DNA of 64,000 nucleotides from a virus (IMGVR_UViG_3300030616_000506:1-64000), one strand, 5' to 3'. Positions 14,384-59,202 are shown, counted from the stretch's first letter. Made by a program: numbers and translations. The notes: a model not told the origin generated them from the letters alone.

Positions 14384-14384
14384 A

Positions 14385-14849: not shown

Positions 14850-14861
14850 AGGTGAATAATT

Positions 14862-15356: not shown

Positions 15357-15362
15357 TTAAAT

Positions 15363-15806
15363 ATGGCAACACCAACAATATATAAGGGTGATGATGCTAC
15401 AATCTATATTAGTGGATTAAAACATACAGTCCTTGCAATATCTGATTTTTCATTGACCCTAGGAAAGGGTACAGCGGAACAGGAGTTAATAGGTGAAAAG
15501 GGTAATTTCATGATAGCAGGAGCTATGTCAGCTGAAGGATCCCTAACTGCATGTAAATTACATGCATCAGCGGTATCTAAGTTAGTACAAAATATGATAG
15601 GTCAAGGAATCATAAGGGTATCTGGAAATTGTGGTGCTAATTCACTATACTTTAATCTAGCTAGTTGTCAAGTAACTGGTTTTGACTTTAGTATAGGAAC
15701 AGCAGATGAAATTACAGAGGGTACAATAGATTTTACATCGCTAATTCCATATAGAATAGAAGTATCATCAAGTTCGACTCAGACATTTTTATCAGATTGC
15801 ATGTAG
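15363..15806 (+). CDS. Tail tube protein, type B copy 2
   Basis: SAEGSLTACKLH and GTADEITEG motifs shared with 14385..14849. Confidence 0.7.
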   Translation: MATPTIYKGDDATIYISGLKHTVLAISDFSLTLGKGTAEQELIGEKGNFMIAGAMSAEGSLTACKLHASAVSKLVQNMIGQGIIRVSGNCGANSLYFNLASCQVTGFDFSIGTADEITEGTIDFTSLIPYRIEVSSSSTQTFLSDCM

Positions 15807-22800: not shown

Positions 22801-25800
22801 TATACTGATACTGGTGGTGATGACTTAGGAACAATAGATTGGCAAGTTCCAACAGCATCATCGGGTTTAAAAATAACTAATCTAGGTAAAACCTCTGGAA
22901 GTCTTGCATTATACATTGAAGATTACATAGCGTCTACTAGTGCTATAGCTAAATTTGCAGGAAGCTCTTCTATAAATACAAAAATAGATGGTAAGTTGGA
23001 CTCTAATGCTGCAAGTGGTGCTTTTTATCCTTCAAGTTTAGGAAAGGGAGTATCTTCTCAGGTTCTAATAAATACATTACATTCAGCTAACTCTGATATT
23101 CATTTTACACAAGCTAGCATAACTACTGTAGGAACTATAGATACTGGAATTTGGAATGGAACTGATATAGACCCATATTATGTCATATCAGGAGAAAAGA
23201 CTCTAATATCTGGAGTTATGTTTTCTAAGGCATACGCTTCAGCACAAATTGCTAGTTATGAATCTAGTGGATTCGATGCAACTCAATATATTACTAGTTC
23301 AAACGCTTTAAGTTTATTTGCTGATAGTAGCACAACTCAGAGTAAATTTATTTTAACAAGTTCTTACAATGCTTCAGGAGCATTCTATCCTAGCTCATTA
23401 GGTAAATCTTTGATGTCTTACTCTAGTAATGCTAGAAGTTTATATGCAGGTACAGGAGCAGCATCTAAATGGAGATTAGGAGCTGGTGGAATTTATTATT
23501 CTGGGGAAATATCCTTAGGACATTCAGGTTTTGATATAGGAGATTATAAACTTCAAGTATCAGGTGCATCATTCTTTAGTGGTTCAGTAACCTTTTTAGG
23601 GGAGATATCAGGTGTTGCAATTCCTACATATGATAGTGGAGCATCTAGTAAAAAGTATGTAGATAACATATCAGGAGCTATAGTAAGTCATGTTTTATTT
23701 AATTATTATCCATCTACTTTAGGAATTGGGGTTTCAAGTAATGTTAAAATATTAAGTGATTGGTATAATGCATCTAGTAATGAATATTCAAGAGCATTTG
23801 CATCAGCTAACGCTTTAAGAGCTTTAGCATTTAAAGATTCAGTAGATATATCTGATGATACCAATCTTTCTGCAGGAGAAGGGATAACTTTAACTGGAGA
23901 TACTATATCATGGGCATCAGGTACACAACTTCATGGTGCTTGGGCAAGTACACAAGCTTTACAAGATCTTGCATTCAAAGCTAGTATTGATATAGGAGAT
24001 GATACAAACTTATCAGGTGGAGATGGTATTACTCTTACAGGAGATGTTATATCGTGGGCATCAGGCTCAGAATTACATAGTGCTTATCTATCTGCTCAAT
24101 CTCTAAAGGAACATAGTTTTCATACTCTAATTTCTGGTTCATACCTACAATCAGGTTTAAAATATTCAAAGGCTTATAGAAGTGCACAAATTGCATTATA
24201 TACTTCAGCTGGTGATAGTTTAGGTATAATTAATTGGAACACTCCTACAGCCACATCTGGTGTTAATATACAGGGAGGTGGAATGGTATCAGGTACCTTA
24301 GCAATATTCTTAGAGGATTATATAGCTAGTTCATCTGTAGTATCTAACTTTGCAAATAGTGGTATCTTACTTGGTAAATATTATCCATCAACTTTAGGTA
24401 AAAAGGCTTTAGCATCAGCTCAATCAGCTATGTTCCAGATACAAGATGGAATAACTAATTGGGATTCAACTGAGTTTTTAAATTCAGGAATAATGTGGGA
24501 TGGTACAAACTGGGAAGCTATGCCATCTGGAGGATCAGATGGTAATGGAGGACAATGGAGTTCTAGAACGGGTGGTATATATTATGAAAATGAAGTTACT
24601 GTAGGACATAGTGATTTTGATTTAGGAAATTATAAATTACAAGTATCTGGAGCCTCCTACTTTAGTGGATCAGTTGACTTTATTGGAGAGATTTCTGGAA
24701 TATCTGACCCAACTTATGCTAGCGGGGTTTCTAATAAACATTATGTTGATACCATATCAGGTGCTATAGTAGACCATGTTCTTTTTAATTATTACCCATC
24801 TGATTTAGGATTAGCTAATAATTTACATTCAAGTAATGCTGATTTACACTTTCCATCAAGCAATTTATTGGAATGGTTAGGAAATCACTATGCACCAACT
24901 GGTACATCTTTTGATGCAACATCCTATATCACATCATCTAACTCAATAGATAGATTTCATCCTTCTGGATTTGTAATATCTGGTGGTGAATATAGCCAGG
25001 CTTACGCTTCCGCTCAAGTAGCAGTATACTCACCTGTAACACAGTCACAACTTGCATCAGGAACATCTTATTGGAAAGCATATCTTTCTGCTCAGGTAGC
25101 ATCTTATGATGCCGGATCAGGAGATAGTTTAGGGTCAATTTCATGGAACACCCCTACTGCCGCATCAGGAATAATAGTTCAAGGTGGAGGTATGTTATCA
25201 GGAAACTTAGCTATATTTATGGAAGACTATATAGCATCCACTAATGCTGTAGCTAACTTTGCTCATAGTACTAATATAAATGGTAGATTTTATGGTAGTG
25301 GTTCTACTATTAATTCTAATTATATAATGTCTAGTGCTAAATTTACAGTTGCTGCAGATACTGATAATGATGGTTATCTAACATCAACTGATTGGGATAC
25401 CTTTAATAATAAGAGTGATACAGCTGGTGTTCCTGGAACTACTATAAGTAGTAACTTCTTCTTAGTGGGATCTGGTAACACTCTTTGGGGATGGTATAGT
25501 GCATCCGGAGAAAAGTTATCAACAATGTCTGGTAGTATAAACACTAAAATAAATAGTAAATTAGACTCAATGGCAGGAAGTGGTTCATTCTATCCATCAT
25601 CATTAGGTGCTGGTGTGTCATCCCAACATAAGATAGTTTATGATTGGTTTGCTGGTTCATCATCTAAGTATTCTGGTTGGTATACATCTGGAGCTAAATT
25701 TGCATTAGCTTATGATCATAGCCAGGATAATACCCAAGCTCACTCAGATTATCTACTAAATAGTGGAGATGATTCGTCAGATGGAGTTATAACTGCATTT

Positions 25801-31529: not shown

Positions 31530-34500
31530 ATGAGCTCTCTCGGAAAATTAACGGTCTATGTAGATGCTAACATAAAGGGATTTACTTCCCAAATGGGTAA
31601 ACTTAGAACTGAAGTTCAAAAGATGAACAAAACCATAACTAAAGAAGCTACAAAGGGTGCTGGTAAAAGTAAAAACTTATTTGGTGATCCAAGAGATGCA
31701 GCAGCATATGCAGAAAAGGTTAGGGCATCTTTACAAAAAATCTTAGGACCATTATATCAAGTTAAAAATACCGTTAGAGAAGTGGATGGTCAATTTAAGG
31801 TAGGAGGAGCATCCATAACTAAATCAGCCCAAAGAATGGGAACCGGTATAGCATCTGGTGCTAAAACTGGAATGGCTGGATTATTATCTTTAAGATCCTT
31901 TATGGCTAAAATAGTTCACTATATTACCTTCAGTATAGGTGTACAGTTAGTTATGGGAATTAGACAAGCATTCTCATCTCTTATAGAAACATTTTCTGAA
32001 TATGAGAGAGCCATTACAAATGCCGTAACTGTATCGGGATATCTAGGATCAGCCTTTGAAGAAGTTAAGGATAGAGTATCTGATCTAGCTGAAACTTTAA
32101 GCAAAAAGACCGTATATAGCTCTTTAGAGGTAGCTAAGGCTTTTTACAGTATAGCATCAGCAGGTTATGATATATCTAAAATAACTGAACAAGAAGTTAT
32201 ACCCATACTAAATTATGCTGCAGCAACTCAAGCTGAACTCGATACCGCTACACAAGCAGTATTAACAACCATTAAAGCATTTAATCTAACTCTAGAAGAT
32301 ACCGCTAGAGTTACGGATGTATTTGTATCCGCAATTACATCATCATTTTTGACCATGGATAAGCTAAGGGAAGCCATGAAATATGTAGCTCCAATAGCGG
32401 GTACCTTAGGAGTATCAGTAGAAGAAACAGTAGGAGCAGTAGCAGCATTAGCTAATGTTGGTATGGAAGGTGGACAAGCTGGACAACGTTTAAATATGGT
32501 TCTAACTAAGTTACTAAAACCAACTGATAGAGCAAGAACTATGTTTGAGAGTATGGGGCTAACCATGCAAGATTTAGATCCTAATATACATTCCATAGTT
32601 GATATTTTATATAAATTACAAGCAGCAAACTTTGGTGCTGCAGAAGCTGCAACTATGTTTAGAGCAAGAACAGCAGGTGCAGCAGTAGTATTAGTGGAAA
32701 ATGCAGATTCGATAGCTAGAATGATAACTCAATATAAATTAGCTTTAGGAGTTACGGAAGCAGTAGCTCAAGCTCAAGAAGAAACTTTATGGGGAACTCT
32801 AAAGAAAACTGCAGATGAAATGCAGAGAATAGCAATAAATATAGGAGAGCAGCTAGCTCCATCAATAGAAAATATATTAACAAGTTTATTAAGTACATTT
32901 GAACCTCTGCTCTTAGGTTTAGGTAGCACTCTAAATAGTATATTCACTACTTTAACAGGTACATTTAATCAATTAAAGCCTCTAATACAGGGAATGGTTA
33001 ATGGTGTTGTTACTTTAGTTAATTCATTTTTATCTTTGTATAATATTATAAAGCCTATTTTACCAGTAATAATTATGTATTTCGTCATAATGAAAAGTTT
33101 AAAATTAATATTATGGGCTGTTGCTAAGGCTACAGTATTTTACTATAAAGTATTACTTCCATTAGCTAAATTCATAAGGATGTTAGTTACTTATAAGAAG
33201 ACATATGTAGGTGTCTCTCTTATGCTACATAAAGCTGTATTAGCTGAATCAGTAGCTAACGTTCAGGCAGCTGGATCTCAAGCTGTTTTAACTGGCTCAA
33301 CAGTTGCTTTAACAGGTGCTATAAAATCTCTAACTGCAGCTTTATTAACGAATCCTTTAACTTGGTTTGCTGTAGCTATAGGTGCAGTGGTTGCAGCATT
33401 TGCTGTGTTTGGAAGAGGTCAGCAAAAAATATCTAGATATGTTAGATCTTCAAGTGAAGAGATGGCTATTCAGATGGGAATAATGGAAGATACTGATAGT
33501 GTATTATTAAAATCTACTAAAAATATGAGAAAATTCTGGGGAGCTATGTCTGAATTATACTTTGAAAATAAGGAGGATCCTTGGTCCGCTATAAATATTG
33601 GAAAGTTTGCAGAGGATATGAAAATAACAGAAAAAGATCTTAGAGAGGTTTATAAAAGATTAATGGATGATACTGAAGAATATATAGGTATAAATAAAAA
33701 AGAATTAAGAGAAGCTCTAGAAACTTGGGGTAATATAGAATCAATTGAAGGTGTTGGAGCAATAATGAAAAATATAAGTAAGGAAACAGTAGAATATGTC
33801 AATAATTTAATAGCATCTGCAACTAAGAATAAAGAAAAATTAAGAGCTGTAGTAGATTTATCGGATGAATATATAGGATATCAAGTAGCTATAGAAAATG
33901 CTATACAAGCAGATAAAGATGAGAAAGTAGCATTGGATGCTCTAAATGATGCATATCTTAATAATGCAGATAGTTTAGATATATTAATAGAAAAAACTGA
34001 AGAATATGAAGCAGCTAAAGCAAAATCAACTAAAACTGATGAGTTGTTATTAACAGCCGTTAAAGATTTGTTAACTGGTATAAGATCCTATTCTGAAGAT
34101 TTATCGGGTGATGAGCCAGGAGGTAATCTAGATGAATGGGTAGGAATATTAGAAGATGCATCAGCAAAAACATTTGAATTATCTGAAAAACAGGCTAGAC
34201 AAACTATAATAATGAGAGATCAAAAAAATGCAGCTGTGGAATTATCTAGAGCTATTCTACAATATGGATCAAGTTCAGATGAAGCAGCTTCTGCACAAGA
34301 GCGTTTAAATACTCTAATAGAAGCTAGTGCTAGTCTTACTACTGAAATAGCTGAAATACAATCAGTAATAAATACAAACACTAGTTTATATAATGCAGTA
34401 TTGAAGGATAGAGTAGATGATACTCAATTATTGACTGATACAGAGAAATTATTATTACAAGATGCAAACAATATCATAAATATTAGAGATAAATCTATAA

Positions 34501-37500
34501 AGGCTGAGATAAAATATAATAAAGCTTTAGCTCAACAAAATGTTTTGGATAATATCAGAGAAAGTCACTCTACTATATTAGAAGAAAAGATGAGAATTTA
34601 CCTAGAAGCTCAACAAAAAATATTTGATATAGAAGAGAAACTATATAAATTAAGAGTTAATGAAGATGAACAAATGGAGGGATTATTTGATAAATTAGCT
34701 GAGCAAGGTCAGTTAACTGAAGAGATGATAAAAATGTATTCTGATATAGAAGAGGCTCAAGGAGCTATATTAGAAATTGAATATGACCATACTAGAGCTT
34801 TCGATGCTTTAACTGAATCTCAACAAGAAGTTGTTAAGGCATATTATAGGGGAGAAGTTGGTTTAGATGCATTAAGAGCTGCAGGTATAGATAATATAGA
34901 TATATTTGAAATATATAAACAAAGACAACAAGACTTAAAGGATGCTACAGATGCTTTTAGGGAAGCAATAATACCATTAGTTTCTGATTTAAAGGATATA
35001 GGAGCTATAACAGCTGAGACAGCACAAGCTTATTATGATATTATAGATAATGCTCTTGAAGTAGCTCAGGCTAATTTTGATATGTTAGAGAGTCAAAATG
35101 CTATAGTTGATAGTTGGAATGGTATGATAGACACTAATTCTATGTTAGCATTATCATTAATGGATAATGCAGACTCAGCATCTAGTGTTATAGATGTGTA
35201 TGACGAATTTTTAAATAAATTAGGAGTTACTAGACAGGAAGCATCTTCTACCATGGGATCCTTAGGAGCTCTTAGTGATGAAGAATTAATAGTTGGAGCT
35301 ACTCTAATACAAGCAGCTAAAAGTATAGGAGTTTATGAAGAAGGAATGTCTATAGCTGAATTAAAAAATAAACTAATGATTAAGTCCTTAGAAGATCTTA
35401 ATAATATAGCTACAGTAAGTCTTTCATCTATGGAACCTTATTATGAAATTGCTGATGCTGTTGGTGAATTAAAGACAGCTTTTGATTTAGCTAAGGATGC
35501 ATTACTAGACTTAACAGCTCAATTACAGGTATTTCTTGGTCTTACTAGTGAAGATATGTTTGAATTTTCAGTTGGATTTAATTTTAAAGAAGTTTTAGAG
35601 AGAGGATTCAAGGGAAATTTGGAAGCGTTACTAGATTTTGCAAAAGGGAAGGGATATGAGTTTTCATTTGATATTGCTAGTCAATGGGAAGGAGAAGATT
35701 GGAAGTCATTTATAGATGCAATAGATGATAATTATATGCCTGCACTTGAGGGAATACTAGAGGATGTATCTCCTGAAATAGATATAAATACTGAATGGGA
35801 TGGAAACGAATGGAAATCTTGGTATAGTAATTTAAGTAGTACCAAGAAAAATCAAATAAATAGAGCATTTGATAATTTTATATATAAATTTGAAGTTGGA
35901 ACATTATGGGATGGTACAGATTATGTTTCTTGGTATAATAGTTTATCATCAGATAAACAAACCGCTATAAAAACTATAATTGGGAATATGGGAGGAGATA
36001 TAAAAAATATAACAAAATGGGATAATGAAGATTGGGATAATTTTTTAAATACACTTCTTCCACAACATGAACTTGCTATCCAAGAATTAATGGATGCTTG
36101 GGATTTAACTTTTAATATACAACCAAATTTTGAAGAACCGAAAAAACCTGAGGAACCATTTAAGGATGTAGTAGTACTTCCAGATACACCTACTGGTAGT
36201 ATTGGATTATCAAAGGGTCAGACTGTAATTAGTCCAGATAAAGTAAAAATAATTCCAGATACACCTACTGGTAGTATTGGATTAGCTCCTGGTGATATAG
36301 TTGTAGATCGTGGAACTGTAGAAAAAGCAAATGCAGGAAACATAACTTTACCTCCAGGTATTCGTAATATTATAGAGAAAAGTCCATTAGGACATCTATT
36401 AAAACTTCAATCAGGTGGAATTATAACCAAACAACAACTTGCATTAATTGGAGAAAAAGGACCAGAAGCAATAATTCCTCTAACTGGTTCTAATAAAAAA
36501 GAAGGAGAGAAGATATTAGCTTCTATAATACCTGAATTTTTCCCAATAGTTCATGAAAAATTACCTACTTTACCACCAGGATCTAATATAGATCCCAGAG
36601 ATTGGTATGGAAACTCACTACCCCCTAAACCTTATTCTGGGTTCAATAAGGATGATTATGAATTCAATAAACTAGATTTATGGATTCAGGCTGAAGAAAA
36701 TTTAGGCAAATTAAATGATAGCTTAAAGAAAAGAGGAGTAAGTGAAGAAACTATTGCTAGATTAGCTCCTATAGCTGCTGATAAGTTTAAAGGAAAAATA
36801 GGAGACTCATCTAAAGAACTTGAATTTGCAATTGATTGGGTTATTCAAAATGAAAAGAAATCAGCTTTAGAAAAGATAAATATAGAAAAAACTGCTGCCG
36901 AAAGTGTATCTATCTCACTATCAGATTCTACCAATATGTTAACATCATCCTTTAATGATGTACTATCAGATTTTAGTGAAACATCCTTAACTGCATCTCA
37001 AAATTGGATACAATCAGTTCTAAAAAGCTCTGGGGATTGGCTAAGTTATATAAACACAACTTCACAAAACTGGTATGAATCAGTAGGAAATTCAGCTATC
37101 TCTCTTTATAATTACATTATTTCTTCATCAGACCAATTTAATACCCTATTAACTTCTACTGGAGGAGTATTCTCATCTCAAGTTTTATCAGCTAGTGTTG
37201 TATTATTATCTCATGCCACTATAGCTAGTGGATTGATAGTTGCAGCAGCTACTGAATTAATGAGAAAAATAAATGCTGCTAGCATCAATATTAACGTGCA
37301 ACATTCTCATGTGTTCTCTTATTATTATTATACCTTTGGTTGGGCTAAGGGAGGTATAGTACCCGGTCTACAAAAAGGAGATATAGTTAAGGGATCTCAA
37401 ATAATTGAAGTTGGAGAAAAAGGTGCAGAAGCTATAGTGCCATTAACGGGTACAAATAAGAAATTTGGTGAGAAAATATTACAAACAATAATACCTAAAT

Positions 37501-37703
37501 ATTATCCTGATTTATTTTTACAAGCTCAAACGGGGGGTCTCTTTGGTGGAGCCACTGGAGGTAGTGTTACTTATGGTGGTGATACTAATTATGTTGATGA
37601 GTATAATATAATGGGCCCCATAACAGTTACAGGAGTTCAAGACGTAAAAGGATTTATGGATAATTTAAAGATGAGAGCAAGGGCTACAGGAGCTAGAAAG
37701 TAA
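31530..37703 (+). CDS. Tail tape measure protein (TP901-type core)
   Basis: EAMKYVAPIAGTLGVSVEET...LANVGMEGGQAG; long helical region; two IGEKGPEAIIPL-type motifs. Confidence 0.95.
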   Translation: MSSLGKLTVYVDANIKGFTSQMGKLRTEVQKMNKTITKEATKGAGKSKNLFGDPRDAAAYAEKVRASLQKILGPLYQVKNTVREVDGQFKVGGASITKSAQRMGTGIASGAKTGMAGLLSLRSFMAKIVHYITFSIGVQLVMGIRQAFSSLIETFSEYERAITNAVTVSGYLGSAFEEVKDRVSDLAETLSKKTVYSSLEVAKAFYSIASAGYDISKITEQEVIPILNYAAATQAELDTATQAVLTTIKAFNLTLEDTARVTDVFVSAITSSFLTMDKLREAMKYVAPIAGTLGVSVEETVGAVAALANVGMEGGQAGQRLNMVLTKLLKPTDRARTMFESMGLTMQDLDPNIHSIVDILYKLQAANFGAAEAATMFRARTAGAAVVLVENADSIARMITQYKLALGVTEAVAQAQEETLWGTLKKTADEMQRIAINIGEQLAPSIENILTSLLSTFEPLLLGLGSTLNSIFTTLTGTFNQLKPLIQGMVNGVVTLVNSFLSLYNIIKPILPVIIMYFVIMKSLKLILWAVAKATVFYYKVLLPLAKFIRMLVTYKKTYVGVSLMLHKAVLAESVANVQAAGSQAVLTGSTVALTGAIKSLTAALLTNPLTWFAVAIGAVVAAFAVFGRGQQKISRYVRSSSEEMAIQMGIMEDTDSVLLKSTKNMRKFWGAMSELYFENKEDPWSAINIGKFAEDMKITEKDLREVYKRLMDDTEEYIGINKKELREALETWGNIESIEGVGAIMKNISKETVEYVNNLIASATKNKEKLRAVVDLSDEYIGYQVAIENAIQADKDEKVALDALNDAYLNNADSLDILIEKTEEYEAAKAKSTKTDELLLTAVKDLLTGIRSYSEDLSGDEPGGNLDEWVGILEDASAKTFELSEKQARQTIIMRDQKNAAVELSRAILQYGSSSDEAASAQERLNTLIEASASLTTEIAEIQSVINTNTSLYNAVLKDRVDDTQLLTDTEKLLLQDANNIINIRDKSIKAEIKYNKALAQQNVLDNIRESHSTILEEKMRIYLEAQQKIFDIEEKLYKLRVNEDEQMEGLFDKLAEQGQLTEEMIKMYSDIEEAQGAILEIEYDHTRAFDALTESQQEVVKAYYRGEVGLDALRAAGIDNIDIFEIYKQRQQDLKDATDAFREAIIPLVSDLKDIGAITAETAQAYYDIIDNALEVAQANFDMLESQNAIVDSWNGMIDTNSMLALSLMDNADSASSVIDVYDEFLNKLGVTRQEASSTMGSLGALSDEELIVGATLIQAAKSIGVYEEGMSIAELKNKLMIKSLEDLNNIATVSLSSMEPYYEIADAVGELKTAFDLAKDALLDLTAQLQVFLGLTSEDMFEFSVGFNFKEVLERGFKGNLEALLDFAKGKGYEFSFDIASQWEGEDWKSFIDAIDDNYMPALEGILEDVSPEIDINTEWDGNEWKSWYSNLSSTKKNQINRAFDNFIYKFEVGTLWDGTDYVSWYNSLSSDKQTAIKTIIGNMGGDIKNITKWDNEDWDNFLNTLLPQHELAIQELMDAWDLTFNIQPNFEEPKKPEEPFKDVVVLPDTPTGSIGLSKGQTVISPDKVKIIPDTPTGSIGLAPGDIVVDRGTVEKANAGNITLPPGIRNIIEKSPLGHLLKLQSGGIITKQQLALIGEKGPEAIIPLTGSNKKEGEKILASIIPEFFPIVHEKLPTLPPGSNIDPRDWYGNSLPPKPYSGFNKDDYEFNKLDLWIQAEENLGKLNDSLKKRGVSEETIARLAPIAADKFKGKIGDSSKELEFAIDWVIQNEKKSALEKINIEKTAAESVSISLSDSTNMLTSSFNDVLSDFSETSLTASQNWIQSVLKSSGDWLSYINTTSQNWYESVGNSAISLYNYIISSSDQFNTLLTSTGGVFSSQVLSASVVLLSHATIASGLIVAAATELMRKINAASININVQHSHVFSYYYYTFGWAKGGIVPGLQKGDIVKGSQIIEVGEKGAEAIVPLTGTNKKFGEKILQTIIPKYYPDLFLQAQTGGLFGGATGGSVTYGGDTNYVDEYNIMGPITVTGVQDVKGFMDNLKMRARATGARK
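36178..36284 (+). repeat. Perfect 32-bp direct repeat inside the TMP gene (75-bp period)
   Basis: TTCCAGATACACCTACTGGTAGTATTGGATTA at 36178-36209 and 36253-36284 (PDTPTGSIGL twice). Confidence 0.9.
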
Positions 37704-48288: not shown

Positions 48289-48831
48289 ATGGCATCTGAT
48301 AAGCAAAATTATCCCAATGCTGGTCATAAAGCATTTCCCTATTTTTTTACTACTGATGAAGATGATGTTAATCCCATAGAGGGATTTTGGTTAAAGGAGC
48401 CTTACTCTCCACCCTTTGTGGAGGATTATAAATATAACTATGATCTAGCTATATTCTATAATTCTTTAGCAGGAAATGATTTTGTTGATTGTAGATGTAG
48501 CAGATGGGATATTCAGAATTATAATGTTATAGTGGAGACATGGTTAAATTCTACAGACTTAAAGAGTATTAGAGATAATATAAGACCTGGAGCTGTAGGT
48601 GAACTATATAATATATTAGGAAGACCTCGATATTACGATAAAACCTGGAGAGGTAAAAATACTCTAAGGTTATTACCTACACCATCATCTGCTAGTATGA
48701 GAACTAGTAATCTAAAAAATATGAGAGATGAGACATTAATATATGTTAAAAATATAACCACTCATCCCATAAATGAAAATTGGACTGAAATAAAAATAGA
48801 GGGAATGATTAGCGGAACTAATAGTTTATAA
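48289..48831 (+). CDS. Distal-tail-like protein, paralogue 3
   Basis: C-terminal ~125 aa closely similar to 41559..41939. Confidence 0.5.
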   Translation: MASDKQNYPNAGHKAFPYFFTTDEDDVNPIEGFWLKEPYSPPFVEDYKYNYDLAIFYNSLAGNDFVDCRCSRWDIQNYNVIVETWLNSTDLKSIRDNIRPGAVGELYNILGRPRYYDKTWRGKNTLRLLPTPSSASMRTSNLKNMRDETLIYVKNITTHPINENWTEIKIEGMISGTNSL

Positions 48832-49003
48832 AAAAGTCGAGGACTACCAAAAAAAGGCTCAAATTTTGCTCGAGGATTGCCGGAAACGGCCCTCTCGCTG
48901 CAAAACGTTTTTCACGAATGGTAAAGGTCCAACCATATAAAAAAAGGGGTATTTTCCCTCCTGTTATAAGGAGAGAATTAAAGTGCCTCAGAATCGCTTA
49001 AAA
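48832..49003. terminator. Convergent intergenic region with hairpin and A/T tracts (bidirectional terminator candidate)
   Basis: Lies between opposing operons; TTCCCTCCT-GTTATA-AGGAGAGAA stem and A7 tracts. Confidence 0.45.
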
Positions 49004-49855
49004 TCAATCTTTATTTTTGGTGCTCATAGCACCCTTAATTTTAAGCCAATCTTTATTTTTTCTAATTTCTATATTCTTTTTCCATGATGCATCCAATACT
49101 TTTGGGTCTATGCCTAACTCTCTGGATTTATATATTAGTGATCTAAGATCCTTAGGAAAACATAATCCTCCAAAACCAAAGTCTCCATCATGTCCCGGAA
49201 CATCCATATGAGAATTACCTATTCTACCGTCAGCTAATAGCATTTTCTTTACCTCTTCAAAATCTATACCTAATTTTTGGCATATCTGATAATATTCGTT
49301 CATTAATGATACTTTAACTGAAAAGAAACAGTTGGCTGAATATTTAACCATTTCAGCTGTAGTTGGATCAGTCCAATATATAGGAGTATGGATAAATCTC
49401 TCTCTATAGAGTTTATCTACTTCACATAGATCATCTGGATCTCCCCCTATAATAATTCTAGAAGAATTTATAAAATCTAATTTTGATGTTCTTGCAGTTA
49501 AAAACTCTGGATTAAACACAATTCTTAAGTGAGGTATATTTTTTTTTATTCTCTCCGTAGTTCCAGGAGGAATAGTGGATTTTATTATAAGTATCTTTTT
49601 TGGAGTAATATATTCTCTACTTTTTTCTATTGTTTTTTCCAATATAGAAATATCACATTCTCCTGTATCAATATCAGATGGTGTAGGTACACATATAAAT
49701 ATAAAGTCACTATCCCTTATAGTCTCTTCAAATGTATTCTCAGATATAATAGGATCTATATCATATATTCTAAAATCAGCTATTTGAGCAAATCCATGTT
49801 GAATTGCTCTTCCGACCATTCCAAATCCTATAATTCCTATTATACATTTCTTCAT
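49004..49855 (-). CDS. UDP-glucose/GDP-mannose 6-dehydrogenase family (short viral type)
   Basis: GIIGFGMVG, FICVPTP, IKSTIPPG, FNPEFL and GFGGLCFPKD. Confidence 0.9.
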   Translation of the reverse strand: MKKCIIGIIGFGMVGRAIQHGFAQIADFRIYDIDPIISENTFEETIRDSDFIFICVPTPSDIDTGECDISILEKTIEKSREYITPKKILIIKSTIPPGTTERIKKNIPHLRIVFNPEFLTARTSKLDFINSSRIIIGGDPDDLCEVDKLYRERFIHTPIYWTDPTTAEMVKYSANCFFSVKVSLMNEYYQICQKLGIDFEEVKKMLLADGRIGNSHMDVPGHDGDFGFGGLCFPKDLRSLIYKSRELGIDPKVLDASWKKNIEIRKNKDWLKIKGAMSTKNKD

Positions 49856-50421
49856 ATCTTTTTCCTCATAACTACAAGTGTATTTCTTCTACCATATAGT
49901 TCTCTGGGTATCTTATTTTTTCCAATTGATTTTATTATATCAAAGTACTCTTCAAGTCCATATAGTGTATCTAAATTATGATAATAATCATGTATAAATA
50001 AAACTGATTTCTCATCCATATATTTGAGGGCTGCTAAAGCACAAGCTTTTCTAGATCTACCATCTATTAATATTGCATCAAATCTTTTCTCTCCAAATTT
50101 CTCTATATAATTTATGTAATTTTTATAAAATATATCATCACAATATGGATATTTATCTACCTTTTTAACTTTCGCTAGATTCATATATACATTATCATAA
50201 CGTTTAAATTTCTCTATCCTATCTTTAACTTGTAAGAAAAAGTCCTTGTCATGCTCTATACTATAGTATTTTTTTACAAATTTTGGAAAGTAGACTGTAC
50301 TACCACCTGCTCCCCACTCTAACATTATGCTATTCTTATCTAAATAAGATACAACACAAGAAATCTCTTTAAGTGTCATTAATGGAGTATCACCTAAATT
50401 TCCTTTTTTACTTATCTTCAT
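49852..50421 (-). CDS. SAM-dependent methyltransferase (glycan O-methyltransferase-like)
   Basis: MLEWGAGGST, SIEHD, ILIDGRSR and FIHDY. Confidence 0.75.
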   Translation of the reverse strand: MKISKKGNLGDTPLMTLKEISCVVSYLDKNSIMLEWGAGGSTVYFPKFVKKYYSIEHDKDFFLQVKDRIEKFKRYDNVYMNLAKVKKVDKYPYCDDIFYKNYINYIEKFGEKRFDAILIDGRSRKACALAALKYMDEKSVLFIHDYYHNLDTLYGLEEYFDIIKSIGKNKIPRELYGRRNTLVVMRKKI

Positions 50422-51373
50422 ATATAATCCTTGTTCCCTCATCCTCAAAGTTAAATGGTAATTCCTTAAGATCACTTAGGGCATATCTAACATCATTCTG
50501 TTTATCTGGTTCACAATAGAATAAAATAAAACCACCAGATCCAGCTCCACATATCTTTCCACCCTTAGCTCCAGATTTTATTCCTCTATTATAAATATCA
50601 TCTATTATATTATTACTAACCTTACCAGTACTCTTCTTTATTTTCCATACTTCATTAAGATAATAACCCATATCTTTTAGGTTATCTTTAATTATATCAT
50701 CATAAATGCACTTTGCTAACCAACATAGATCAGATACATCATTATATATGTCATCATATCTTTCTTTTTGGTCCTTCAATACACTTCCAGCACATCTCGT
50801 CATACCAGTATGAAATAATAACATATTATCCTGCATTTTATTATAGGTCTCTATATCAGTAAATACTGGAGATATCTTAACTCCTTTTCTATTAAATATC
50901 AACTTATTTAGACCTCCAAAGGTACATGCATATTGATCTTGTTTACCTATTGGTTCTCCCAATATTTCTATTTCAATCTTACATGCATCTTCAGCTAATT
51001 TGGATCTATTGAAGGTTATACCCTTATATGTATATAGTGCATTAAGTAATCCAACGGTAAACGCAGAACTTGATCCTAATCCACTTCCTCCTACTGTATC
51101 TGCTAGAGATACTATTTCAAGAGGTTCTTCTATATCAGCGTACTTAAGACATTCTCTAATTATAGGATGTTTGATATCATTTATATTACTTACAGTTTCT
51201 ACATCTCTATAAACTACTCTAAACTTATCTGAATGACTTTTGGTTATCATAACATATATATATTTATCTATTGTTGTTGATATCACAAATCCATCATTAT
51301 GTTTATAGTAATTCTCTAGGTCTGATAGACCTCCAGCGAGACTTAATCTATAAGGTGTCTTAGATATTATCAT
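50408..51373 (-). CDS. GHMP sugar kinase, HddA-like (heptose-7-phosphate kinase family)
   Basis: SKTPYRLSLAGG.SD, GSGLGSSS, GKQDQY and GGKICGAGSGG. Confidence 0.88.
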   Translation of the reverse strand: MIISKTPYRLSLAGGLSDLENYYKHNDGFVISTTIDKYIYVMITKSHSDKFRVVYRDVETVSNINDIKHPIIRECLKYADIEEPLEIVSLADTVGGSGLGSSSAFTVGLLNALYTYKGITFNRSKLAEDACKIEIEILGEPIGKQDQYACTFGGLNKLIFNRKGVKISPVFTDIETYNKMQDNMLLFHTGMTRCAGSVLKDQKERYDDIYNDVSDLCWLAKCIYDDIIKDNLKDMGYYLNEVWKIKKSTGKVSNNIIDDIYNRGIKSGAKGGKICGAGSGGFILFYCEPDKQNDVRYALSDLKELPFNFEDEGTRIIYEDK

Positions 51374-52238
51374 TCTTCATCAAATATTCAACAGTTCTAT
51401 TTACAGCTTCTTGTGTTGTATAATTAGGTTTCCATCTAGTTTCTAATAACTTTCTATTATCCAATATAGTTATAGGTACATCTCCCTTCCAACCTCTATC
51501 TCCTCCAGTAAATATTAATTTTGTTTCATCATCAGTTACTATTTCTGATATGTATCTAGCTAAATTTTTAATTTTTACTGTATCTGATGCAGCTAAGTTA
51601 TATATATTAAAATTACTATCACTATGGGGTAAATTACAAAATGCATCTATACAATCCTCTACATCTAGAAATTGTTTAGTTTGGTTACCGTCTCCTAAAA
51701 CTTCTAACTCTTTAGGATTTTCCTTTAATTTTTTAACAAAGTCTTTAATAACTCCATGTGTATTACTAGGACCTATTATATTTCCTAACCTAAATATGTA
51801 GGACTTTATATCAAAACAATGACTATAAGCTGATATAAGTTTCTCACAAGCTAACTTGCTTGCTCCATACATAGAAATAGGTTCTAAATTAGGTGCATCT
51901 TCTTTTGTAGGGATATCTACCCTTTCTCCATATATAGTAGCACTAGAAGTAAATACTAATTTCTTACAACCGTTACTTACCATAAATTCTAATACAGAAT
52001 GAGTTCCTATTATATTATAACTTAAATCTATAGATCTATTTTCTACTCCACCTCTTACATCTGCATTTGCAGCTAAATGATATATAATATCATATTTCTT
52101 ATCTGGATAATCTCTTGGTATATTTATATTCTTATCTATCTTTAGATCTATAATATCAACTTCATGTCCTTCTGATGTAAGTCTATCAACTAGATGACTT
52201 CCTATGAATCCCTTTCCTCCTGTAACTAATATATTCAT
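51360..52238 (-). CDS. NAD-dependent sugar epimerase/dehydratase (extended SDR)
   Basis: LVTGGKGFIGSH, HLAA, YGASK and GWKGDV. Confidence 0.92.
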   Translation of the reverse strand: MNILVTGGKGFIGSHLVDRLTSEGHEVDIIDLKIDKNINIPRDYPDKKYDIIYHLAANADVRGGVENRSIDLSYNIIGTHSVLEFMVSNGCKKLVFTSSATIYGERVDIPTKEDAPNLEPISMYGASKLACEKLISAYSHCFDIKSYIFRLGNIIGPSNTHGVIKDFVKKLKENPKELEVLGDGNQTKQFLDVEDCIDAFCNLPHSDSNFNIYNLAASDTVKIKNLARYISEIVTDDETKLIFTGGDRGWKGDVPITILDNRKLLETRWKPNYTTQEAVNRTVEYLMKNDNI

Positions 52239-53098
52239 ATTTTTCTCCATATTCTAGGTATACCATGTATCTCTTCTTTATCCTTTAATTCAACCTTAAG
52301 ATGTAATTCAAAACCATATTTAGGTAATAATTTCTCTATATTTAAGTTGTGTGCAGAATATTTCCAATTTTTACCATGATCTCTTATATAAAGTATACCG
52401 TCTTTCCTTATAACATCCCTAAATACATCCAGCATATAGTATACTAGATCTTCATTTATCTCTTGTAAAACTTGAACACAAAGTATTTTATCAAAGTAAT
52501 TCTTAGGTAAGATATCAGCTCTCCAAGTAGGTATATGGTATATTCCAGGATCATATATTTTTAATTTATTATTATCTAAATATTCTACTAATCGATGCTT
52601 TGATTTAGAATAGTATAGATTCTGCATACAATAAGACTGTAGTATAGCATCCATACCAACATATACTAGATCATCCTTAAATTGTGATAGTAAATTGATT
52701 TGTCTTCCATATCCTGGTCCGAAATCTAGAATTTTATTACCCTTATATAAATAAGTATATAAATAATCTTCTGCATTATATCTCCCTATAGTAGAATAAT
52801 ATTTATCAAAGTCTTTAATTTTTACAATAGCATCATCATAGAAATAACTAGAATTAATATAGGGTTCTATATAATCATCATCAATATTGTCTTTAAATTC
52901 ACTTTTAGATATCCAATCCATCCATTTATTTATATCCTTAATCCCTTCATAAGTATCAAAGGTTGATGGATAATTATCTGGATATTTAACATGTTCTATT
53001 CTCTCTTCTTGATAATCCCAAGATATCATCCAAGGTTTAATATATTTCTTATCTTCTTTAATTACTTCTCGAAATCTTCTTTCAATCTTAGTATGCAT
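52235..53098 (-). CDS. SAM-dependent (sugar O-)methyltransferase
   Basis: ILDFGPGYGR motif I; LQEI...G.LYIRD. Confidence 0.7.
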   Translation of the reverse strand: MHTKIERRFREVIKEDKKYIKPWMISWDYQEERIEHVKYPDNYPSTFDTYEGIKDINKWMDWISKSEFKDNIDDDYIEPYINSSYFYDDAIVKIKDFDKYYSTIGRYNAEDYLYTYLYKGNKILDFGPGYGRQINLLSQFKDDLVYVGMDAILQSYCMQNLYYSKSKHRLVEYLDNNKLKIYDPGIYHIPTWRADILPKNYFDKILCVQVLQEINEDLVYYMLDVFRDVIRKDGILYIRDHGKNWKYSAHNLNIEKLLPKYGFELHLKVELKDKEEIHGIPRIWRKI

Positions 53099-53868
53099 TT
53101 TTTAATATCCCATTGATATTTAATATCTGACAAATCTACATCTCTATTTACAATCAAAGGAATTTCATCAATTTGATCATTTGTAAATGGTAAATCAGTT
53201 AATGTTCCATGATCAGAAGTTATTAATATAGTTTGATATCCAGATAACTCTTCTATATATTTAATTACCTCTCGATATCTTCTAACTCCCCATAGATAAA
53301 CTTCTTTCTTTAGAGCTTTATCTTTTCTTATTTCATCGTAAGTCTTTAATGAAGGTAATCTACCTAATTCATATGGGCCAGGAAACATAACTGCTCCCTT
53401 AACTATAGATGAATGTATCCAGAATAAGTCATAGTCATCTCTTGCAGCTTCAGCAAATATACAAAGCTCTTCACAAGGTACTCTCTTAACACCTTTATCT
53501 TCTAGACTATGATAAAATTTCCATACTTGTTCACCAGAATATGGAGAATCTCCTACAACTTTCTCAAAGAATTTTGACTTATCAAAGTGATCCCAGACTA
53601 AATCTAATTTATTACCAAATCTATCTTCCCAAATGAAGGATTCGGTTTTATATTTATCTGTAAATCTAGTAAAGAAATCTGGATGTAGATTCTTAATTCT
53701 CTCTCCACTCCATAAACAAGTTAGTCCTATAGGAGTAGCTGATACTCCCTGCATCGAGAATGGTCTAACATCGCATCTTATCATCCTCATGGATTGCTCT
53801 TTAAATATATCTTTATATAAATCTTTTGCATATTTCCAGTTTAATCCATCAATACTAATTATTATCAT
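53062..53868 (-). CDS. Alkaline-phosphatase/sulfatase superfamily protein
   Basis: IIISIDGL, putative nucleophile in SATP, and ILITSDHG. Confidence 0.7.
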   Translation of the reverse strand: MIIISIDGLNWKYAKDLYKDIFKEQSMRMIRCDVRPFSMQGVSATPIGLTCLWSGERIKNLHPDFFTRFTDKYKTESFIWEDRFGNKLDLVWDHFDKSKFFEKVVGDSPYSGEQVWKFYHSLEDKGVKRVPCEELCIFAEAARDDYDLFWIHSSIVKGAVMFPGPYELGRLPSLKTYDEIRKDKALKKEVYLWGVRRYREVIKYIEELSGYQTILITSDHGTLTDLPFTNDQIDEIPLIVNRDVDLSDIKYQWDIKKCILRLKEDFEK

Positions 53869-55151
53869 TATATTAATTCAACTATCTCTTTAATTGTACA
53901 ACATTTATTATTTACATCAAAACTTCTCTTATTTATTAATATAGATTCTGCCACTATTTTCATACTTAAATAACTAGCTCTTAACAAATGATTTGCATAT
54001 ATTACTATTGATGCTCCTAATTTTTGTAAATCTTCTTCATACATATGATTATATGTACTTGGAACTAATACTAGTGGAACTCTATTTTTAATATTTTTAT
54101 ATTTATTACAAAATTCTATTAATTCTGTTGGTATATGGTTTTTACTATGTATCATAATAGCATCTGCACCAGCTGATATATAAGCTTTTGCTCTGATTAA
54201 AGCATCTTCAACTCCTTTATTAGCAATTAATGATTCTATTCTAGCTATTATCATAAAATCTTCTGTTAATTTGGAATTAATACCCAATTTAATTTTTTCA
54301 CAGAAATTCTCTACAGATTCTTGAGAGTGAGTAGTATTATCTAACAATGAATTTTTTTTAGGATATTTTTTATCTTCTATTATTATAGCAGAGACTCCTA
54401 TTCTTTCTAGTGTTTTTACCATAGATACAAAATTCTCTTTTGTTCCTCCAGTATCACCATCTACTATTATAGGCTTAGTGGTTACTTCTATTATTTCATT
54501 TACTCTCTGAAGTCTAGATGTGAAGTCTACTATTTCTATATCAGGTTTTCCTTTAGATGCAGAATCAGTTAAACTACTTTCCCATATTGCATCAAACTCT
54601 AGTATATTATTATCATTTTCTATTTTAGTCTTTTCTACTATAATACCTGATAGTCCATTATGAGATTCTAGTACTCTAACTAATGGCTTATACTTTAATA
54701 GGTTCTTTAGAGCTTTTCTTCTCTCATTTGGAGTTATACCATTTTTTAATTTGTTATTTATTAATTTAGTGGAGGATATCCCCTCAGTATAAGATGGCTC
54801 TATTAATTCTCCACCCCATTCACTAATAATATCTATAACATTCTGTCTTATCTCTGACTGTATTCCCTTCTTCCAATCATCACCATGCACTACATAATCT
54901 GGTTTATATTTAATGAGGTTATCTGTATAATCTAATGTATATTGAGGTACTACTCTAGTAACTCCATTTATATTACTAATAACTTTTTTTCTTTGTTCGT
55001 ATGAAGTTATTGGAACTCTTTTATATGAAGCTATAGCTTGATCTGTTAATAGACCTACTATTACATCTCCATAATCTCTAGCTTTATCAATTAGATTAAT
55101 ATGACCTACATGCAGGTAATCTGCTGACATTCCAACATATACTGTCTTCAT
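53868..55151 (-). CDS. pepM: Cytidylyltransferase-phosphoenolpyruvate mutase fusion
   Basis: N-terminal D.LHVGH and VVHGDDW cytidylyltransferase; PepM signature EDKxxxxxNS (EDKKYPKKNS); DGDTGG and IARIESLI. Confidence 0.93.
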   Translation of the reverse strand: MKTVYVGMSADYLHVGHINLIDKARDYGDVIVGLLTDQAIASYKRVPITSYEQRKKVISNINGVTRVVPQYTLDYTDNLIKYKPDYVVHGDDWKKGIQSEIRQNVIDIISEWGGELIEPSYTEGISSTKLINNKLKNGITPNERRKALKNLLKYKPLVRVLESHNGLSGIIVEKTKIENDNNILEFDAIWESSLTDSASKGKPDIEIVDFTSRLQRVNEIIEVTTKPIIVDGDTGGTKENFVSMVKTLERIGVSAIIIEDKKYPKKNSLLDNTTHSQESVENFCEKIKLGINSKLTEDFMIIARIESLIANKGVEDALIRAKAYISAGADAIMIHSKNHIPTELIEFCNKYKNIKNRVPLVLVPSTYNHMYEEDLQKLGASIVIYANHLLRASYLSMKIVAESILINKRSFDVNNKCCTIKEIVELI

Positions 55152-55771
55152 AATAACTCTCTTACTTTTTTATATTCAGTAGCTAGATTTAATATATGAG
55201 CTAATGCTACACCATGAGGTATATCATATTTAGCAGTTAGTGCATATGACATACCATGTATTATATTAGTTCCAGTATAATCTATAGCATTACCAGCTAA
55301 TATACTAGCATATAACCAATCATCATTTCTTATAGATTCTATAGCTTCTAAACAAATTGTAGCTATATGAGGTTTACATTTCTTAGATGTAAATGATTCT
55401 ATAATATGACATAGACAATCTATCTTACTAGCTATTTCTATCTCTTTTGGTAGATGCTCTAAATATTCATATTTTAATTTAGTTAGTGGTAACTTACAAT
55501 CTATGTTATGTTTCTTTCCTTCATGCCAATATACTGCGTGTCTCGTTCCAGATGCACCTGAGTATGTAGTAGGTATTGCTATTATTTGATATCTACATAA
55601 AATCTTAGCAGTATCTATCACAGAACCCCCTCCAATAGCTATGACCTCATCATATAGATTTCTCTTCTGGACTATTCTTATATCTGGTGGATGCTCTACT
55701 ATATATATTTTATCATATTTCCAATCATCTGCATATTTCCTAGTTGAAGGGCTTACAACCATTAATCTCAT
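55148..55771 (-). CDS. Iron-containing alcohol dehydrogenase, short (phosphonoacetaldehyde reductase candidate)
   Basis: AIGGGSVIDTAK, IPTT, D.LCH..ES and HGMSYALT...IPHG. Confidence 0.8.
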   Translation of the reverse strand: MRLMVVSPSTRKYADDWKYDKIYIVEHPPDIRIVQKRNLYDEVIAIGGGSVIDTAKILCRYQIIAIPTTYSGASGTRHAVYWHEGKKHNIDCKLPLTKLKYEYLEHLPKEIEIASKIDCLCHIIESFTSKKCKPHIATICLEAIESIRNDDWLYASILAGNAIDYTGTNIIHGMSYALTAKYDIPHGVALAHILNLATEYKKVRELL

Positions 55772-56249
55772 TATAAAACCTCTCAGTTATATCTTTATGT
55801 TTCATATCTATTCTAGGTGGTATATCTTTATCATCTTTCTTTATTTTTATTACACTACAGTTACATAGGTCAGTAAAATTAATAGCATCACTACAAGTTT
55901 TCTGTCCACCTGTACTTTGATATTGATTATTATCTAATATACATAATGTAAGATTTGGTAAATCTAACTTATTCATTAATGTTAATGTACCTAAACTCAT
56001 TAATACCTCTCCATCACCAGCTATTACTAATACTTCTCTATTGGTATGTAGAGCTAATCCTATTCCAAATCCCAATGCAGATCCCATGGAACCCATCATA
56101 TAGAAGTTAGCTGGTCTGTCACATACTCTATATAATTCTCTACTTATCATTCCTGCAGATGAAACTACCAGTTCATCATCAAATCTTTTTGATAAAAGTT
56201 CTACGATTTCTCTTCTTGATTTTAATGAATTTGTAATTATCATATTCAA
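55740..56249 (-). CDS. Phosphonopyruvate decarboxylase beta subunit (TPP-binding, ComE-like)
   Basis: NFYMMGSMG and GDGE...LDN TPP motif; STGGQ. Start may be 56243. Confidence 0.85.
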   Translation of the reverse strand: MNMIITNSLKSRREIVELLSKRFDDELVVSSAGMISRELYRVCDRPANFYMMGSMGSALGFGIGLALHTNREVLVIAGDGEVLMSLGTLTLMNKLDLPNLTLCILDNNQYQSTGGQKTCSDAINFTDLCNCSVIKIKKDDKDIPPRIDMKHKDITERFYNEINGCKPFN

Positions 56250-56544
56250 GTAATTCTAATAAATATTTGGATATCTTATACATAAACTTATGATGTGCAG
56301 GATCTTTCCTCAAACTTATAATCAAGTGAGGTAGTGGTATATTATAAGGCTTATATAGACTAGTTACTATATCTACTATATTACCTATTCCACTATTTTG
56401 CATATACACTTCTGGTTTCTTACCTGCAAACCATGCTCCAGCTGCGATAGCCATAGCTTCTCCTTCACTAGTGCATGGTACATCTACATCTTTAATAAAT
56501 TCCTTTAATTTAGAGCAAGGAATTCCATACTTAATCTTCTTCAT
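56179..56544 (-). CDS. Phosphonopyruvate decarboxylase alpha subunit (ComD-like)
   Basis: GIPCS.LK, EGEAMAIAAG and YMQNSGIGN. Confidence 0.85.
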   Translation of the reverse strand: MKKIKYGIPCSKLKEFIKDVDVPCTSEGEAMAIAAGAWFAGKKPEVYMQNSGIGNIVDIVTSLYKPYNIPLPHLIISLRKDPAHHKFMYKISKYLLELLEYDNYKFIKIKKRNRRTFIKKI

Positions 56545-57352: not shown

Positions 57353-57955
57353 TCATTCATATATCTGCAATTTTAATACATCTTCAATTGATTTTAAATC
57401 TTTTTCAAAGAATTCTACATTATTTCTTATTTTGTTATCATCCCAATCCCACCATTTTAATTTTAAGAGATATTTTCTAATATCCTCATTAAATCTATAT
57501 TTTATACGCTTAGCTGGTACTCCTCCAACTATTGAATAGTGATCTATGTCTTTAGTTACTACTGCTCCAGCTCCTATTACAGCTCCATTACCTATAGTTA
57601 CTCCTTCTAGAATTATTACTCTAGTTCCTATCCACACATCATTTCCTATATTAACTGCTTTTTTACTATTTCTTAAACCTCGATTACCTATGATTGTGTC
57701 ATATAAAGCTCTACTTATAGAAGGTTGTTTGGTATTATAATTAACTGTTTGAAATATAACTTCTCTAGCTATATTACAATATTTACCTATATTTATCTCT
57801 CCACCATAAAATTCACACCCTTCATTAACTATACTTCCGTGATCTAGATAAACATTTCCCTTAACTTTAGTATTTATATTACTAACTCCAGTATGTCCTC
57901 TAACAAAAAACTTACCTTTGCCTCTCATATAAATTTGTTTGTATCCTTCTTTCAT
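57353..57955 (-). CDS. Hexapeptide-repeat O-acetyltransferase (CatB/Vat-like)
   Basis: [33 protein letters not shown] and KWWDW. Confidence 0.9.
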
Positions 57956-59202
57956 ACTTTATCCTTATGTCTAAATACAACATATCTTCTATATTTATCT
58001 ATCAATCTCTTTTGCTCATATCTTAAATCTTCATTTGATAAAGTCTTTGTGTTCACCCAATTATTATTGTATTCATCAAAGGTTGACCAATCCCAATCTT
58101 TCATCAAATCATGATCATAATATTCGTTATTAGGGAACGGTGATAATAAAGCAAATCCTACCATATCTGGCTCTAATTCATCACATAATTCTTCTGTCAT
58201 TTTTATATCTTCAATTGTTTCATTTGGCATTCCTAATAAAAAATAAGCTCTAGTTTTAATACCATACTCTTTAGTTAATTTGAATGCATCCCTTATCTTA
58301 TCTACATTTGTATGTTTATTCATATCCTTTAGTATTCTAGGAGATCCACTCTCTACTCCATACCATAATTCTGTACAGTTAGCTTTATATAGATGTTCCA
58401 ATAAATCTCTGTTTATGGTATTAACGTGAGCATTAGCACCAAAAGGTATATTAATATTTCTTTTAATCTTCTCATTACAGAATTCTTTTACCTTACCTCT
58501 ATTTAAGGTAAAGGTATCATCTGCAAACTTTATAAAATCTATATTCCACTTATTTACGGTATATTCAAATTCATCTAAAACATTAATTGGAGATCTTATT
58601 CTAGCTTTACTACCCCATAAAAATCTACTACAACAAAAGCTACAATTAAATGGACATCCTCTACTACTAAATATAGATGTTATTCTCTTACCTCCATCAT
58701 TATAAGCTTGTTGTATATTCCTCTCATTCTTGATAGTATCCCTATCAGGATAAGGTAAGTTATCTAAATTCTTAATAGATCTAGAATTAACTATAGTATT
58801 TCTACTTTGTCTATTTTCTAATATATTTCTAACTATCCTATAGAAGGATAACTCTCCCTCTCCCTCTATGACTATGTCTACATCTTTCTCTCTTATAACA
58901 TCTTTAGGTAGACATGTAGGATGTATTCCTCCCATAACTATCCAATTATTTTCACTTCTTAATTTCTTAGATAAATCAAGAGCATGTTTAAATTGTGGAC
59001 TAGTGCATCCGAATCCTATTATATCAGAATCTTCTGCTCCTCTTAATATGGTTTTATCACTATCATAAAAACCTGAATAGAAATTTATATCTAAATCTTC
59101 TTTAATATATTTTCTCAAAGTAGATATTATATATCCTATACCAAGTGCTTCCCATGTATGTCCTTTATATCCAACATTAGGTTGTATAAATGTTATTTTC
59201 AT
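57952..59202 (-). CDS. B12-binding radical SAM protein
   Basis: [27 protein letters not shown] and G.PNET. Confidence 0.92.

Follow-up and report, generated by a model that had tools for sequence, protein, structure and literature searches.

Can a virus of bacteria or archaea make phosphonates? These compounds account for much of the dissolved organic phosphorus in the sea; their carbon-phosphorus (C-P) bond resists phosphatases, and the known producers are, to our knowledge, cells. The question is raised here by five overlapping open reading frames (ORFs) on the minus strand at 53062-56544 of a 64,000-nucleotide stretch of viral DNA (hereafter the window), which is the first 64 kb of the 144,545-bp IMG/VR record IMGVR_UViG_3300030616_000506 (G000). 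In the order of transcription they encode the two subunits of a phosphonopyruvate decarboxylase (PpdA and PpdB), an iron-type alcohol dehydrogenase (Fe-ADH), a fusion of a cytidylyltransferase with a phosphoenolpyruvate (PEP) mutase (CyT-PepM), and a protein of the alkaline phosphatase (AlkP) fold. The original prediction, made before any database search, saw in them a virus-encoded C-P pathway set in a viral glycan operon. The ORF listing places all five genes there, with overlaps of 32 nt and 65-71 nt, and the operon of sugar enzymes that surrounds them extends over about 40 kb and 50 ORFs. The first four apparently form a compact pathway, which looks intact, for 2-hydroxyethylphosphonate (HEP) activated by cytidine monophosphate (CMP). 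We consider it likely that a lineage of tailed archaeal viruses of about 140-160 kb carries an all-soluble glycan operon, and that in two of six records this operon includes a HEP/CMP-HEP cassette used for glycan decoration.

The other of these two records, IMGVR_UViG_3300028920_000038 (G006, 137.8 kb), carries these four genes in an unchanged order; from PpdA to CyT-PepM its proteins measure 114, 167, 207 and 423 aa, and are 63, 50, 56 and 66.5% identical to those of G000.

The PEP mutase fusion

The product of 53868-55151 (minus strand, 427 aa) is a predicted bifunctional protein of the Fom1 type, with 55.4 bits on PF01467 for the cytidylyltransferase and 176.9 bits on PF13714 for the mutase (Pfam). 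Its mutase part exceeds the NCBIfam equivalog TIGR02320 (379.2 bits for a cut-off of 319.55), and the runners-up among the models of the isocitrate lyase (ICL) family, phosphonopyruvate hydrolase (158 bits) then methylisocitrate lyase (109 bits), come far lower; the profile search thus separates it from the rest of this family. The active-site motif EDKxxxxxNS, announced as intact, reads EDKKYPKKNS, and E259, D260, K261, N267 and S268 are invariant in an alignment of 18 homologues. In the same alignment the HxGH motif of the cytidylyltransferase domain has H14, G16 and H17 invariant, and in its ISST motif I125 and S126 are invariant, S127 and T128 nearly so.

Solved structures give the same picture: residues 144-426 match the PEP mutases 5unc and 1m1b (E 1e-43), and residues 3-132 match the Fom1 cytidylyltransferase, PDB 5x3d (E 3.3e-50), with about 77 of 130 positions identical (~59%). 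The cytidylyltransferase is therefore a close homologue of the Fom1 domain, fused as it is in Fom1. PMC6697681, citing Cho et al. 2017, documents that the Fom1 domain makes CMP-HEP. Among the operon ORFs scanned no 2-aminoethylphosphonate (AEP) transaminase, class-V aminotransferase, MpnS/HEPD, HppE or FomD was recognised; since these are missing there and an ADH is present, the HEP branch is favoured. Likewise, with an ADH next to it and no aminotransferase, the substrate of the viral cytidylyltransferase would be HEP rather than AEP or some other phosphonate.

In the PepM tree the proteins of G000 and G006 cluster with that of one metagenome contig (SH-aLRT 90). Their sister is a short contig (only 1.9 kb) of a Heimdallarchaeota bin, with SH-aLRT 100, and this region of the tree is mostly archaeal. 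Such CyT-PepM fusions are frequent in bacterial and archaeal genomes, with 55-64% identity to the viral protein.

The split decarboxylase and the compact dehydrogenase

PpdA (56179-56544, minus strand, 121 aa) would be a compact PYR-domain subunit: it covers positions 6-126 of the Ppd profile TIGR03297 with 82.3 bits, for 66.7 bits on ComD, and in the six-frame view it retains TSEGEAMAIAAG, the stretch with the cofactor-activating Glu (TSEGEA). PpdB, the putative PP-domain subunit, is read on the same strand at 55740-56249 from a TTG (169 aa), or up to 56243 from an ATG (167 aa). It scores 52.3 bits on PF02775 (TPP_enzyme_C) and 110 bits on positions 170-298 of the 360 of the Ppd profile, and its thiamine-diphosphate motif GDG-x26-NN is intact (GDGEVL...LDNN).

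The third gene (55148-55771, minus strand, 207 aa) encodes a compact group-III Fe-ADH, a putative phosphonoacetaldehyde reductase. The protein matches both the N and the C domains of Fe-ADHs (PF25137 and PF00465), and its top NCBIfam match is TIGR03405, the Fe-ADH of phosphonate clusters, over positions 128-282 of 355. The GGGS motif is kept, as are the metal ligands D118/H122 (D-x3-H) and H172/H186 (H-x13-H). Its AF2 model (pLDDT 96.2) shows the two-domain Fe-ADH fold and superimposes on the Fe-ADH 1vhd with a query-normalised TM of 0.83 and a probability of 1.0.

Several features of these two enzymes weigh against the assignments. PpdB scores slightly higher as a sulfopyruvate decarboxylase (129 bits on ComE versus 110 on Ppd), and both subunits, coming from a protein that is short and divided in two, lie far under the equivalog cut-offs; the choice of Ppd rather than ComDE leans on the conserved linkage to PepM. 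The ADH reaches 71.7 bits on TIGR03405, for an equivalog cut-off of 423.7, and compared with the solved Fe-ADHs it is shorter by about 50 residues at the N-terminus and about 80 at the C-terminus. Textbook Ppd is a fused protein of about 360-380 aa, and textbook Fe-ADHs have about 360-390 aa.

One could then see here a decaying cassette, in which Ppd and ADH have lost their activity through shortening and PepM alone looks intact. PpdA has 121 aa for about 160 and the ADH 207 for about 370, the ORFs overlap, and PpdA, PpdB and ADH all stay under curated cut-offs. On the other hand, lengths, ORF boundaries and catalytic motifs are kept in G006 at 50-63% identity, the ADH having exactly 207 aa in both records, and it models confidently as a complete two-domain fold. 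Moreover the short forms are normal for a whole clade of clusters: in related PepM clusters Ppd is usually split and short (112-141 plus 154-157 aa) and the ADHs are also short (258-265 aa). When ADH relatives of 230-290 aa, aligned from residue 1, were searched for exhaustively, about 65 representative clusters came out; the viral protein belongs to a compact subfamily of 207-290 aa. Finally, near-identical strain variants (99.7-99.85% identity) recovered from other samples show neither insertions nor deletions in the cassette, where the sole single-nucleotide polymorphism is synonymous. Decay is, in our opinion, very improbable.

A proposed route to CMP-HEP

Taking the cassette as functional, established enzymology suggests the order in which its enzymes would act. 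The PEP-mutase domain would convert PEP to phosphonopyruvate (PnPy); the two-subunit thiamine-diphosphate decarboxylase would turn the latter into phosphonoacetaldehyde (PnAA), drawing the unfavourable first step forward; the pared-down Fe-ADH would convert phosphonoacetaldehyde to HEP; and the Fom1-type cytidylyltransferase domain, with CTP, would yield CMP-HEP. All the domains present are consistent with this route from PEP through PnPy, PnAA and HEP to CMP-HEP, which is the one that had been proposed. A fifth step is speculative, as to both its acceptor and its transferase: CMP-HEP might be the donor for a hydroxyethylphosphonyl ester placed on a glycan from the surrounding operon.

HEP might also be only an intermediate, the end product being 2-hydroxypropylphosphonate (by a Fom3-like radical S-adenosylmethionine (SAM) enzyme acting on CMP-HEP), methylphosphonate or AEP. 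Indeed a gene for a B12-binding radical SAM enzyme (57952-59202, minus strand, PF02310 and PF04055) lies two genes upstream of the cassette, Fom3 is described, in what PMC8158854 gives on it, as methylating CMP-HEP, and several other PepM loci of IMG/VR have a radical SAM gene directly after the ADH. However, the viral radical SAM has generic NCBIfam matches only, its best PDB relatives being AprD4 and TsrM-type enzymes; it is just 23-27% identical to the cluster-linked radical SAMs of other PepM loci, and the surroundings of the G006 cassette, out to about 10 kb, revealed no homologue of it. To this is added that none of the dedicated enzymes listed above (MpnS/HEPD, HppE, FomD, class-V aminotransferase) was recognised. 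A Fom3-like role for this protein is possible but unsupported, and an end product beyond HEP seems improbable to us; CMP-HEP is retained as the expected product.

Viral origin

Is the cassette carried by a virus at all? The virion module occupies the plus strand from 1416 to 48831, within the first 48.8 kb of G000: large terminase, portal, protease, HK97 capsid and tail genes, recognised by PHROG matches, which converge on the glycan operon. The operon begins at 49004, fills the window to 64000 on the minus strand and continues to about 88.3 kb of the record. Beyond it, from 89 to 143 kb and still on the minus strand, come genes for a ribonucleotide reductase (RNR), a family-B polymerase (PolB), a Rad51/RadA recombinase and an HNH endonuclease, with about 100 small ORFs; PolB found no match among cultured phages.

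An operon that was in fact host chromosome beside a provirus, or a contig that was an assembly chimera, would explain why the coding strand and the GC skew both change near 48.9 kb, where GC drops from 0.33 to 0.29; the record is moreover linear in IMG/VR, with a CheckV completeness estimate of 45%. But viral genes stand on both sides of the operon, and 72 ORFs spread over all three modules are collinear between G000 and G006, at 25-83% identity. The tail/glycan junction (48289-49855, made of the last tail gene at 48289-48831 and the last glycan gene at 49004-49855) is repeated in G006, L032, L034, L125 and L126. Contiguity was checked through independent contigs, and near-identical ones from other samples keep this junction. 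The host flank and the chimera are therefore rejected as hardly credible, and the stretch from 49 to 64 kb is taken as contiguous with the virion module. The cassette itself does not stand out from the operon by its GC (0.295 versus 0.289).

Some other traits of the virion module may be mentioned. In the large terminase (1416-3821, 801 aa), residues 55-383 form an insert, about 330 aa long, with no counterpart in the G006 terminase, to which the two flanks are 71% and 59% identical; this insert is probably an intein. The protein also matches PHROGs of DnaC-like helicase loaders and primases, and as a whole it matches Vibrio phage genes annotated as hint domain protein. The gene pair 13904-14383 and 14385-14849 and the neighbouring pair 14862-15356 and 15363-15806 correspond to one and the same pair of G006, which suggests that at 13904-15806 two virion genes of G000 were duplicated in tandem. 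The module also contains giant ORFs at 16819-26853 (3344 aa) and 31530-37703 (2057 aa); an ORF of L034 that partly matches the latter has a tape-measure domain (PhageMin_Tail).

A probable archaeal host

Several genes indicate the domain of the host. An Alba homologue (PF01918, 38 bits) lies between terminase and portal, at 3831-4109, and is found at the same place in G006 with 65% identity. Past the window, G000 also encodes a short ERCC4-HhH (XPF-type) nuclease (110723-111355), the ribosomal protein eS17 (112020-112310; PF00833, 48 bits) and the Rad51/RadA-type recombinase (113008-114054). An Hsp20-like protein is encoded at 87570-87980 of the record, also past the window; like the nuclease, eS17 and the recombinase, it is archaeal or eukaryotic-type. 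The best cultured relatives of the capsid are haloarchaeal tailed viruses (E 1e-24 to 1e-26), Bacillus jumbo phages coming only at 1e-15 or weaker. The host is thus very probably an archaeon, which agrees with the archaeal virus first supposed from the sequence. As to its lineage, the capsid found one match, a distant one, in 400 Asgard genomes and none in five chosen archaeal genomes, and its named relatives are in one Thorarchaeota bin and one Actinobacteria bin.

The glycan operon and its probable target

From 49 to 88 kb of the record, annotation with Pfam and NCBIfam shows sugar-nucleotide, transferase and radical-SAM genes, and convincing transmembrane segments in none of the 50 ORFs. 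Neither a membrane protein nor a flippase, a lipid-carrier transferase, an oligosaccharyltransferase or any export gene was found among these 50. Because the operon is devoid of membrane, lipid-carrier and export genes, the glycan is most likely placed on a soluble acceptor, for example virion proteins. This is the reading that asks for the fewest assumptions, although glycosylation of virion proteins is only presumed. Against a transfer of HEP to the glycan, no LicD (PF04991), CDP-alcohol or other known transferase of the phosphonyl/phosphocholine type was found in the operon ORFs scanned. To speak of HEP-substituted glycans, as the original prediction did, was thus an overstatement: both the glycan target and the transferase are putative.

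The same CMP-HEP chemistry might instead be aimed at the surface glycans or S-layer of the host, perhaps masking receptors or preventing superinfection. For PepM clusters of cells, a role in decorating the surface and in mitigating attack by phages or grazers has been suggested (PMC8931226; PMC6697681), and the sequence data do not designate the acceptor. Yet the operon has none of the membrane and lipid-linked functions just listed, even if host export enzymes could still serve, and in all relatives examined it adjoins and converges on tail genes. We view a host-surface target as rather unlikely and prefer the soluble one, most plausibly on the virion.

With regard to its content, the operon has two B12-binding radical SAMs (the one at 57952-59202 and another at 77253-78500 of the record) and at least four SPASM radical SAMs, a density that is unusual for sugar tailoring. 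It is also mosaic across the lineage, as seen when 49004-53868 is compared with L032, L034 and L121. The conserved backbone is made of the AlkP-fold gene and of a UDP-glucose-dehydrogenase-like gene adjoining the tail genes; the cassettes that vary between relatives are the phosphonate one, a fucosyltransferase, a formyltransferase and a carbamoyltransferase. This mosaic resembles an O-antigen-style diversification. The presence or absence of the phosphonate cassette among relatives, within a conserved operon, suggests a diversifying selection on the surface chemistry of the virus.

The AlkP-fold protein

The last of the five genes (53062-53868, minus strand) encodes a soluble protein of 268 aa, with no Pfam match over threshold. 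Its AF2 model (pLDDT 92.7) has the fold of the alkaline phosphatase superfamily (Foldseek probability 1.0), close to the NPP/phosphodiesterase type, with VIA Z of 15-17 against sulfatases, NPPs, iPGM, YejM and phosphoethanolamine (PEtN) transferases. D7, G8, T45, D219 and H220 are invariant in the alignment of its family, which thus keeps the metal-binding Asp and Asp-His and the nucleophile expected in this superfamily, and by its language-model (Atlas) features it most resembles short PF01663 proteins of archaea (score 0.95). The family is small, with only 42 clusters in 5.8 billion proteins, many of them on contigs longer than 100 kb.

This gene had been counted as a member of the phosphonate pathway, a view that its distribution contradicts. 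It is present in six related viral records, four of which have a capsid 57-79% identical to that of G000, and PepM accompanies it in only two, G000 and G006; as the four others lack PepM, the AlkP-fold protein cannot be HEP-specific. In two of the latter, L032 and L034, it stands in the same block as in G000, beside epimerase and GHMP-kinase genes. A strict tie to a heptose (GHMP kinase) route was considered and discarded: G006 has the gene without the kinase, and the two are about 20 kb apart in G014. The ORF upstream of it in the PepM-less relatives has a weak, uninformative methyltransferase resemblance. By its conservation it appears as a core gene of the lineage's glycan operon, which adjoins the cassette in both PepM-positive viruses, downstream of it in G000 and upstream in G006.

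The protein is a candidate phosphonyl transferase only, as its modelled resemblance to PEtN transferases is at the level of the fold. Going further, one may imagine a virus that assembles a complex glycan on its own virion proteins, entirely in the cytoplasm, and caps it with HEP, the compact, virus-restricted AlkP enzyme moving the phosphonyl group from CMP-HEP to the sugar via a covalent Thr intermediate. This scheme is doubtful; if true, the enzyme would define a class of phosphonyl transferases of its own, and the particle would be the first viral one to bear phosphonates.

Comparison with known systems

What we describe is a known pathway in a new carrier and in a compact form; its chemistry is well supported, its target is not. 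Were a tailed virus of archaea to have a complete and conserved C-P pathway, the phosphonate producers would come to include prokaryotic viruses, and this would be an unusually elaborate case of glycan chemistry made by a virus. It would also offer enzymology minimal versions of two enzymes, a Ppd of 121 plus 167 aa and a phosphonoacetaldehyde reductase of 207 aa.

The fosfomycin genes Fom1, Fom2 and FomC of Streptomyces wedmorensis compare well with the viral ones: PF01467 is fused N-terminal to a PEP mutase and, together with a Ppd and an iron ADH, leads to HEP then CMP-HEP. The virus differs by its split and compact Ppd, its ADH of 207 aa, and the lack of a detected HppE or FomD and of a clear Fom3; the setting is also different, a viral glycan operon instead of an antibiotic cluster. 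The clusters for cellular phosphonoglycans (Rice et al. 2019, PMC6697681; Acker et al. 2022, PMC8931226) share with the virus a PepM-nucleotidyltransferase fusion placed among glycosyltransferase and sugar-nucleotide genes. Most of them make AEP through an aminotransferase and have LicD-type transferases and membrane or export genes, whereas the virus would follow the HEP branch with soluble proteins throughout and no LicD found.

On the viral side, searches of the literature yielded genes for phosphonate catabolism and transport, and for viruses that infect bacteria or archaea no PepM pathway. The original prediction knew of no characterised viral example; none was found, but there is a computational precedent. 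Li and Horsman 2022 (PMC8942020) scanned the RefSeq viruses, 364 huge phages and 501 metagenome-assembled genomes of nucleocytoplasmic large DNA viruses (NCLDV), and reported one NCLDV contig with an AEP pathway; Borg elements have a CyT-PepM as well (PMC12660748). In IMG/VR itself, about 20 other contigs (L012-L031), putatively viral, have CyT-PepM, PpdA, PpdB and an ADH of 258-265 aa in that order, which is not the order of G000; they fall in separate clades of the PepM tree and include terminal-repeat records of 189 kb and 77 kb and one record of 425 kb. Nine of these other PepM records gave no match to the large terminase of G000, and five of these nine had none to Capsid_NCLDV (PF04451) or Phage_capsid (PF05065), the blank for PF05065 being weak since the queries are maybe too distant.

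The NCLDV contig is similar to G000 in that a virus-borne PepM stands beside sugar genes and was read, by sequence only, as a sign of a viral phosphonoglycan (PMC8942020); it differs in belonging to a giant virus of eukaryotes in which Ppm is fused to Ppd and AEP is the branch taken, where G000 is a tailed virus of archaea whose cassette points to the HEP branch. The Borg elements of Methanoperedens (PMC12660748) are, like G000, archaeal mobile elements with a CyT-PepM in a glycoconjugate region; Borgs have not been shown to be viruses, whereas G000 has the capsid, portal, terminase and tail genes of one.

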